Numbered from the stretch's first letter, positions 29,324-30,368 are shown. The stretch is 64,000 nt of DNA from a virus (IMGVR_UViG_2563366911_000001); one strand, 5' to 3'. Notes: generated from the sequence alone by a model not told the origin. Program-made: numbers and translations.

Positions 29324-30151
29324 TTATTTCACCGGAACAAACGGAACAGCGGTATTACTGGTCATATACTGCGGTAATGTACCGTTCCATTTGTTGATCG
29401 CTTCCAACTCCATAACACCGGGGTTCTGGCGCAGAGCTTCACCACGTAAACGAATGGCATCAGCTTCGGCCTGGGCTTTTGTGCGAATAGCATCAGCCTG
29501 TCCGGCAGCTTCCGCGCGCAGCATGTTGGCCTCTGCTTCACGTTGTTTGACCTCTTGCTCGCGTTGCAGGGTTTTTTGGTTTGCCGTGACTTTGGCGTTA
29601 ATACTGTCAATAACTGTTGGCGGGTATTCTGGCTTACCTACATAAGAGAGGCTCATCACCTGAATGCCGATTGGCGTCATTTCTTCCTGAATGTCTTTAA
29701 GGGCTGCATCAAGCAATTCGGATTTGCCACCATCGATAAATTTGTCGGTTGTCATTTTGCTGGCTAACCGGTTCAGAGCATCTGCAACCTTCTGGCGTAG
29801 ATCGGTATCAGTAATATCATCTACACCTTTGCGATAGGTCTGAAATACCGTTGTGACTTTTGCTGGATCAACCTTGTAGGCTACGCCGATGTGGTAACCA
29901 ATGGTTGTTCCGTCGCTCATCTGGAAGCTGAACGGCTCATCGTATGTCTTCATTTGCTTAAAGGTCGGGAAGATATAAACTTCAGTATTCAAGCCTGTCC
30001 AGTAGCGACCAACGCCAACTACTTCACCGATACCTTTATCATCCCCCAGCTTATTTACTTTGATCCCTACGTTACCTGGCTCTACCCGATCGCATCCGGT
30101 CAGACATAAAGAACCCAAAATAATCGCTGCACTAATCAACGTTTTTTTCAT
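29324..30151 (-). CDS. SPFH/band-7 domain lipoprotein, 275 aa
   Basis: Lipobox LCLTGC after signal peptide; prohibitin-like core; Ala/Glu-rich coiled-coil C-terminus. Confidence 0.8.
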   Translation of the reverse strand: MKKTLISAAIILGSLCLTGCDRVEPGNVGIKVNKLGDDKGIGEVVGVGRYWTGLNTEVYIFPTFKQMKTYDEPFSFQMSDGTTIGYHIGVAYKVDPAKVTTVFQTYRKGVDDITDTDLRQKVADALNRLASKMTTDKFIDGGKSELLDAALKDIQEEMTPIGIQVMSLSYVGKPEYPPTVIDSINAKVTANQKTLQREQEVKQREAEANMLRAEAAGQADAIRTKAQAEADAIRLRGEALRQNPGVMELEAINKWNGTLPQYMTSNTAVPFVPVK

Positions 30152-30368
30152 TAATTAATTTCCTGGTTTTTTCACGAAAAAAGACTACTGCGAAAGCTGG
30201 GTAAATGAGCGCGAGAAGGACTCCCAACAATACAAGTATTGTGCTGTTAGATGAGATCATATTTGGCAAAAGCCAAACATACAGAACCAGTGACACAATC
30301 AAACAGAGGACGGCATAAATATATAACCGCACCCATAGCGTTCGACATTTGTTCGGATTGTTCTGCAT
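30132..30368 (-). CDS. Small two-TM membrane protein, 78 aa, upstream partner of the SPFH lipoprotein
   Basis: Two hydrophobic helices; 20-nt overlap with the SPFH gene. Confidence 0.6.
   Translation of the reverse strand: MQNNPNKCRTLWVRLYIYAVLCLIVSLVLYVWLLPNMISSNSTILVLLGVLLALIYPAFAVVFFREKTRKLINEKNVD

Follow-up and report, generated by a model that had tools for sequence, protein, structure and literature searches.

The 64,000-nt virus sequence IMGVR_UViG_2563366911_000001 belongs to a P1-type phage-plasmid; this whole stretch is referred to as the window, and all coordinates given are positions in it. Between its phage tRNA genes, the window carries two overlapping genes, the first encoding a 78-amino-acid (aa) protein with two transmembrane (TM) segments and the second a 275-aa SPFH (band-7) lipoprotein. 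The 6.9 kb surrounding the pair shared 99.3% identity with phage RCS47 and, where aligned, 98.5% with reference P1; features of reference P1 are cited from GenBank record AF234172. Both open reading frames (ORFs) reported in a preliminary description of this DNA were recovered at exactly the positions given there, with a 20-nt overlap, and the two-TM protein, the lipobox, and the SPFH core with its long helix were confirmed by the sequence, by Pfam, and by an AlphaFold2 (AF2) model.

Direct comparison with reference P1 by blastn revealed that the pair lies on an exchanged segment. In P1, the slot between trnI and the divergent gene upl contains tciA (TerB-like), tciB, and tciC, and a 1096-bp cassette (29306-30401) stands in the window where P1 has the 724-bp tciC-tciB-tciA segment. 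The flanks (27500-29305 and 30402-31023) were 98-99% identical to P1 and the interior was unmatched, which placed the junctions at 29305/29306 and 30401/30402. The SPFH and tci cassettes have the same borders: both start 34 nt upstream of the first start codon and both end within "cagtaatcc", with the junction 9 nt upstream of the trnI tRNA. The preliminary description had proposed a cargo swap against the tci genes, and these clean junctions establish that swap; in one respect the interpretation was overstated, since the element is not unusual: about one third of P1-like plasmids carry the cassette. Genes identical to the pair are already in databases, where they bear labels only, and no characterised function for them was found. 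A published comparison counts tciABC among eight hypervariable regions in P1-like phage-plasmids, without naming the replacement (PMC9603915).

Analysis of the 275-aa protein revealed a signal peptide (residues 1-19), a lipobox (L17-T18-G19-C20), and an aspartate at the +2 position (Asp21). Pfam Band_7 (PF01145) matched residues 22-208 over profile positions 2-176 of 176 with 107.6 bits (E 9.7e-31), the gathering cut-off being 23.6, and phrog_200 (lipoprotein) matched residues 1-274 (E 2.3e-113). In the AF2 model, a monomer with a mean predicted local distance difference test (pLDDT) score of 76, the SPFH core covers approximately residues 22-175, with strands up to residue 175 followed by a single 65-residue helix (178-242). 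All of the top Foldseek matches were cage-forming SPFH proteins, namely prohibitin, HflK/C, erlin, stomatin, flotillin, and QmcA (probability 1.0, identity 13-18%), and a sequence search of solved structures returned HflK (E 2e-4) and prohibitin-2 as the best matches. In E. coli lipoproteins, Asp at +2 is an inner-membrane retention signal, and the SPFH lipoprotein is predicted to be retained in the inner membrane through this residue.

Compared with one Stx2-phage copy, the mature SPFH part showed a ratio of nonsynonymous to synonymous substitution rates (dN/dS) of 0.012, with dS at approximately 1.07, and the signal peptide showed a dN/dS of 0.52. Purifying selection on the mature SPFH domain is very strong, and a dN/dS of 0.012 is as expected for a protein with many self-contacts. 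The C-terminus carries the motif NKWNGTLPQYM...VPF, in which K254, W255, G257, P260, M263, P270, and F271 are conserved. Together, this motif and the dN/dS value are compatible with a ring or cage assembly and are not proof of one.

The 78-aa partner has hydrophobic segments at residues 17-33 and 46-62 and basic termini. Given two helices and basic ends, an N-in/C-in topology is predicted, in which the two termini are cytoplasmic and LLPNMISSNST forms a short loop in the periplasm. The protein matched phrog_1130 ("membrane protein") over residues 12-76 (E 6.4e-16), a family placed in the category "moron, auxiliary metabolic gene and host takeover". The PHROG matches of the two proteins (E 2e-113 and 6e-16), together with the dN/dS of 0.012, indicate that both ORFs are more than chance reading frames. 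Pfam scans covered the 78-aa protein and five homologues at E limits of 0.1 and 1 and gave no match for the 78-aa protein.

Several identities were considered for this partner and rejected. No NfeD or OB-fold domain was listed in the Pfam scans of the protein and its five homologues, and a length of 78 aa leaves no room past two TM helices for such a domain. Identity with TciB (DUF3927) was rejected on an hhalign probability of 1.7% over 9 columns, and no DUF3927 match was found. No holin family reached a meaningful score; Holin_SPP1 gave a weak, sub-threshold match to one partner homologue (E 0.17).

The start codon of the SPFH gene lies 20 nt inside the preceding two-TM ORF, and the two co-oriented genes are translationally coupled; in relatives, the overlap is 1-4 nt. 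A search of IMG/VR with a four-member alignment yielded 80 loci with close SPFH relatives; at 78 of them, the SPFH start is overlapped by an intact two-TM ORF, and at the remaining two, that ORF is cut by an insertion sequence (IS). Three types of temperate phage that are unrelated to one another (P1-, P2-, and lambda-type) carry the pair in early operons. In the P2-like phage P88, it lies between cox and a replication gene, and in Stx2 phages, it lies beside xis in the leftward early region; the SPFH gene showed approximately 86% DNA identity in each case, and the partner of the Stx2 phages is a 62-aa, unannotated protein.

The association extends well beyond these close relatives. Among 16 diverse phage lineages checked (the P1 type of the window not counted), 14 had a small TM gene adjacent to the SPFH gene: P88, the Stx2 phages, SABI, Maja, Ostro, VLCpiM5a, Meara, BUCTxx99, PaeP_Ls, CcrMagneto, PhiSH19, Kayvirus JA1, Bacillus phage Goe21, and the haloarchaeal virus HJTV-3. 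The neighbour was absent in the remaining two, PMBT37 and IC12. The partners from phages of proteobacteria share a loop motif, P-x-[LM]-[IVL]-S-x-x-[DNS]-[ST], and two-TM ORFs with this motif precede the SPFH gene in P88, the Stx2 phages, SABI, Maja, Ostro, and VLCpiM5a. Conservation of the partner is highest in this loop, and the rest of the protein evolves fast. A small two-TM gene accompanies the SPFH gene as its conserved partner.

Two of these lineages gave further observations. In the Salmonella phage PhiSH19 (Kuttervirus), an unannotated 72-aa two-TM ORF (locus L010, 1932-2150, minus strand) overlaps the SPFH start by 4 nt, and its topology is probably the reverse of that of the window partner because its loop is strongly basic. 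A "superinfection exclusion protein" annotated beside the PhiSH19 SPFH gene was dropped as a lead, as it is an acidic soluble protein of 106 aa and the real neighbour is the 72-aa ORF. In P88 (locus L003, 2690-2887, minus strand), the SPFH gene is followed directly by isrK (63.6 bits) and the C4 antisense RNA (80.5 bits), which precede a "derepression protein" gene.

Public records already contain these genes, which are common and belong to a catalogued phage family. The SPFH protein is 100% identical in RCS47 (p0073), where it is labelled "putative serine protease", and identical copies occur on many plasmids, labelled either in that way or as "SPFH domain-containing protein". The cassette was present in 188 of approximately 577 flank-matching P1-like plasmids in PLSDB (at least 80% coverage), and P1-type tciABC was present in 191; the remaining slot alleles carried either a P7-type TerB gene with a DUF3927 gene or a TciC-like 43-aa ORF alone. 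The alternative alleles are themselves small-membrane-protein modules, consisting of the TerB-like TciA with the two-TM TciB and the single-TM TciC, or of the TciC-like ORF. An example of the latter is pF801-4 (NZ_OY757137; locus L092, 1607-1738), in which a 153-bp cassette with the same borders encodes the single-TM 43-aa ORF (VMDFWAFADKNPGW...) and constitutes a third allele of the slot.

Related copies were found in 460 of 5,426 complete E. coli genomes (approximately 8%); the 509 matched places comprised 308 chromosomal and 201 plasmid sites. SPFH homologues occurred in 838 of 50,697 phage records, many of them from strictly virulent phages; the carriers include Kayvirus, Kuttervirus, Vequintavirinae, phiCbK-like, and jumbo phages as well as haloarchaeal viruses. 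Among the individual copies, NZ_CP058684 (locus L091) was considered as an empty site and rejected, since it holds the cassette with an 882-bp internal deletion corresponding to window positions 29379-30260. The IMG/VR loci L016 and L033 have independent insertion-sequence insertions inside the two-TM ORF.

The coordinates of the pair and the surrounding features are listed in Table 1.

Table 1. Features of the SPFH cassette and its transcription unit in the window
Feature	Position	Strand	Basis or remark
Small inner-membrane protein gene, 78 aa, two TM, first of the pair	30132-30368	-	ORF, phrog_1130
SPFH/band-7 lipoprotein gene, 275 aa	29324-30151	-	ORF, Band_7, phrog_200, AF2 model
Variable cassette, 1096 bp	29306-30401		blastn vs AF234172
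tRNA with CAU anticodon (P1 trnI; Met-type call, tRNA-Ile2 type)	29221-29296	-	conserved 3' border of cassette
STnc100-like structured RNA	30402-30521	- (operon strand)	Rfam RF02076, sub-gathering score
tRNA-Thr	31296-31371	-	upstream member of the same transcription unit as the pair
tRNA-Asn	31374-31449	-	upstream member of the same transcription unit as the pair
Promoter P1ban (Pban) and bivalent C1 operator Op72 (Oban)	~32103-32132	-	inside 3' end of dmt
ban, DnaB-type replicative helicase, downstream gene of the unit	27571-28935	-	98% identical to P1 ban
upl	30560-30751	+ (opposite to pair)	separate gene, P1 annotation
plp (putative lipoprotein)	30752-31171	+ (opposite to pair)	separate gene, P1 annotation

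The setting agreed with what had been noted previously: the CAU tRNA flanks the pair on one side and tRNA-Thr/Asn on the other, ban follows directly downstream on the same strand, and the C1-controlled promoter expected at about 32100 is present as a sequence identical to that of P1, with 68 of 68 bases around Op72/Pban matching. Since Pban/Op72 is identical to that of P1, the pair was placed in the C1-repressed ban transcription unit. A stringent consensus scan of positions 29100-32300 detected no sigma-70 consensus promoter, and neither an own promoter nor a flanking terminator for the pair was detected in that interval. Pban is the probable start of a transcript that would extend to the pair. 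P1 lysate preparations have been found to contain TciA peptides, which indicates expression of the slot during lytic growth (PMC9024508).

Further features were observed in the surrounding region. The structured RNA bordering the cassette resembles the core of STnc100, matching RF02076 model positions 31-147 of 206 with 38.7 bits against a gathering score of 47 (E 4e-7), and its closing stem ends exactly at the 5' cassette junction. The element is kept in P1 (33 bits) and in pF801-4 (47.0 bits, which reaches the gathering score), and it may be a leader, a processing element, or a recombination anchor for cassette exchange. Two predicted upl promoters of P1 (locus L001, 3949-4008) sit inside tciA, that is, within the swapped segment, and no consensus promoter was found at the corresponding window positions 30200-30560; expression of upl and plp may differ between alleles because these predicted promoters belong to the exchanged part. 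The SPFH lipoprotein was also considered as P1 Plp or Upl, and this was rejected because those are different genes on the other strand. At the 3' end of plp (31024-31195), there is an indel of approximately 170 bp relative to reference P1, and Plp is 139 aa long in the window and RCS47 versus 125 aa in P1. In this region, the window departs from RCS47 mainly in the length of dmt, which is approximately 1 kb longer in RCS47 (locus L002, 6125-9412; 3288 nt) than here (32123-34387) and in P1 (2265 nt).

On this basis, we tentatively favour the reading that the pair is an early-lytic envelope module, carried as an exchangeable cassette of the C1-repressed ban operon, which protects or closes the membrane of the infected cell. 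Once C1 repression is lifted, transcription from Pban would run through the tRNA genes into the pair, so that its products would be made together with the tRNAs and Ban. The lipoprotein would be exported, acylated, and held in the outer leaflet of the inner membrane via Asp +2, where, in the manner of HflK/C, prohibitin, erlin, and stomatin, it might use its long helix and conserved C-terminal motif to oligomerise, forming a ring or cage on the periplasmic side. The conserved periplasmic loop of the partner could dock to this cage and define the enclosed membrane patch. Such an assembly may condition the inner membrane of the infected cell, keeping it sealed and energised until programmed lysis; alternatively, it may close the membrane to incoming DNA or toxins, as in superinfection or colicin-type exclusion. 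Either role would be the same kind of job as that predicted for the TerB-type tciABC that the cassette replaces.

This early-lytic envelope reading is favoured because three unrelated types of temperate phage carry the pair in early operons under repressor control, because the family is abundant in virulent phages, because neither a defence-system signature nor an own promoter was detected, and because the alternative alleles of the slot are also modules of small membrane proteins. Of the two functions put forward in the preliminary description, membrane-level exclusion fits the context better than the FtsH idea discussed below and is equally unproven.

Several observations weigh against the reading. 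Oligomerisation, localisation, contact with the partner, and indeed every step of the mechanism are what we infer; the structural model is monomeric, and its C-terminal 30 residues have pLDDT values below 50. The +2 Asp is not conserved, with E, Y, N, or G in other homologues from enterobacterial phages, so inner-membrane retention is not a family-wide prediction. The known exclusion proteins showed no detected similarity to the partner, and no T4 Imm-type family was found at E <= 1 in the Pfam scans of the partner and its five homologues, a level at which HMMER filters drop most matches above approximately 0.1. On the transcriptional side, Pban is separated from the tRNAs by a strong terminator-like hairpin (31942-31923, minus strand), whose 8-bp stem precedes seven T, and the tRNAs are separated from the pair by upl and plp, which are oriented antisense. 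Read-through is accordingly assumed, as Pban transcripts must pass the hairpin to reach the tRNAs, the SPFH pair, and ban. The hairpin falls in a stretch (~31900-32010) annotated as a "dicF-like region" in P1, where Rfam DicF was not recovered at E <= 0.01. Module copies disrupted by deletion or IS insertion exist, which indicates that the module is dispensable for plasmid maintenance. Finally, genome papers call the role of phage SPFH proteins unclear, and the literature searched yielded no experimental work on any of them.

The same literature contained no experimentally determined function for the pair or its homologues and no paper joining P1-like elements with SPFH, and the supplements of the CRISPRi-ART paper held no SPFH entry, the one text match to "prohibitin" being the word "prohibiting". 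Genome papers on other phages speculate on FtsH and lysogeny, or on secretion in Kayvirus.

A broader form of the proposal would extend it to all phages carrying the family, as a lytic, viral HflK/C-like cage that keeps the membrane sealed and energised or closes it to competitors, colicins, or membrane-targeting abortive-infection effectors, and that is interchangeable with tciABC in P1-type elements. We regard this wider version as possible and rather doubtful. If true, it would represent a new class of phage membrane-takeover function and the first biological role for hundreds of phage SPFH genes.

According to a second explanation, the lipoprotein is an FtsH modulator that mimics or displaces HflK/C on the periplasmic side, altering the turnover of FtsH substrates and biasing the lysis-lysogeny decision or host physiology. 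HflK and prohibitin-2 are the best solved-structure sequence matches, HflK/C-FtsH complexes are among the closest folds, the predicted periplasmic bulk corresponds to the HflK/C topology, the Stx2-phage pair is located in the leftward early region beside xis, and a link of this kind has been proposed speculatively by other authors as well. However, the protein reached 23-25 bits where the HflK/HflC equivalogs require 134-159, only one SPFH gene is present instead of a K/C pair, and a lipid anchor replaces the N-terminal TM helix. Homologues are also often encountered among obligately virulent phages, for which no lysogeny decision arises, and among haloarchaeal viruses, and a lysogeny-specific role is less likely for this reason. 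Haloarchaeal hosts are not known to have FtsH, nor are the lysis-lysogeny switches of P1 and P2 known to depend on it. We consider FtsH modulation unlikely.

The pair could also be a moron, that is, an accessory gene set expressed in the lysogen and serving anti-phage defence or acting as a host-fitness or virulence factor of the prophage-plasmid. The category of phrog_1130, the hypervariability of the slot (a property of defence hotspots), and the carriage of a copy by roughly 8% of complete E. coli genomes are consistent with this idea, and a possible parallel, should it belong to the same family, is an HflK/C-like protein encoded by a Pasteurella multocida prophage and reported to be a vesicle-released virulence factor (PMC9872710). 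As a catalogued defence system, the pair was rejected: the SPFH protein gave 0 matches among the 5027 models of PADLOC-DB 2.0, and the partner gave a single match at chance level (E 0.023, 12 bits). Moreover, a promoter of its own and flanking terminators were not detected, in P1-, P2-, and lambda-type phages the pair forms part of early operons under repressor control, and the family is abundant in virulent phages, which never form lysogens. These points make a moron role improbable.

Quite unlikely, lastly, is an accessory role in lysis timing, in which a holin- or antiholin-like partner, or the phage holin, would be sequestered or concentrated by the SPFH scaffold: Kayvirus has mbpS (SPFH) and mbpV (holin-like, single-TM) between the endolysin gene lysK and the transglycosylase gene tgl, stomatin-aquaporin and stomatin structures are among the Foldseek matches, SPFH proteins of other systems act as regulators of channels and membrane proteins, and the sub-threshold Holin_SPP1 match points the same way, but the P1 slot is far from the lysis genes and in an early rather than a late operon, early or regulatory neighbours prevail in most of the proteobacterial phages checked, and the predicted N-in/C-in two-TM topology fits class II holins superficially only.

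SPFH proteins, including HflK/C, prohibitins, stomatins, flotillins, and erlins, organise membranes across every domain of life, and why phages so often encode them is a question that has been raised in several genome papers and left unanswered there. As a discovery, the cassette is an ordinary, already-deposited allele of a known hypervariable slot, and it is more useful as an entry point to that question. What is new here is the exact definition of the cassette borders between the structured RNA and trnI, the demonstration of the two-TM gene as a conserved partner, and the extreme constraint on the SPFH domain. The slot offers a natural experiment, in which the SPFH pair and TerB-type tciABC occupy the same position in the same C1-controlled operon of near-identical, tractable P1-type phage-plasmids, and the loop motif, the C-terminal motif, and the lipobox provide concrete handles for functional work.

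Comparison with known systems revealed several partial resemblances. The SPFH protein shares with E. coli HflK/HflC-FtsH an SPFH core followed by a long helix, HflK being its best solved-structure sequence match, and its bulk is predicted to lie in the periplasm, as in the E. coli cage. It differs in its identity of just 16-18%, in having one SPFH gene with a neighbour that lacks an SPFH domain instead of the K/C hetero-pair, and in its lipoprotein anchor, which stands in place of an N-terminal TM helix. Assignment to HflK or HflC itself was rejected, as the NCBIfam models TIGR01932 and TIGR01933 scored 24.7 and 23.3 bits against equivalog cut-offs of 134.4 and 159.4, respectively. SPFH-NfeD operons (QmcA-YbbJ, PDB 8z5g; archaeal stomatin PH1511-PH1510) likewise combine an SPFH gene with a gene for a small membrane protein, and the QmcA cage was a fold match (Foldseek rank 35). 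The adjacency and co-orientation of such operons are found in the pair, whereas the NfeD/OB-fold is missing from its partner, and QmcA faces the cytoplasm while the SPFH protein here is predicted to be exported; the pair was thus rejected as an SPFH-NfeD operon.

T4 Imm and Sp and T5 Llp are small inner-membrane or lipid-anchored periplasmic exclusion proteins that are made early in lytic growth and act at the envelope. The pair resembles them by analogy only, with no homology detected. P1 tciABC is the counterpart in position, sharing the slot, strand, and operon as well as the combination of a larger protein with one or more small TM proteins in a predicted envelope or stress module; the functions predicted for TerB-type alleles are phage, colicin, and tellurite resistance. 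The two modules have no sequence relation, and TciA carries a TerB domain and is cytoplasmic, unlike the exported SPFH protein. The closest kinship, with no structural difference, is with the phrog_200/phrog_1130 family, represented by RCS47 p0073, P88 gp12/gp11, the "HflC/HflK family inner membrane lipoprotein" of BcepF1 and Maja, and Kayvirus MbpS/MbpV. Gram-positive and Kuttervirus members of phrog_200 have a different partner, with a single TM segment or a basic loop, and the pair in the window belongs to this family by direct membership, with the same gene order and overlap.

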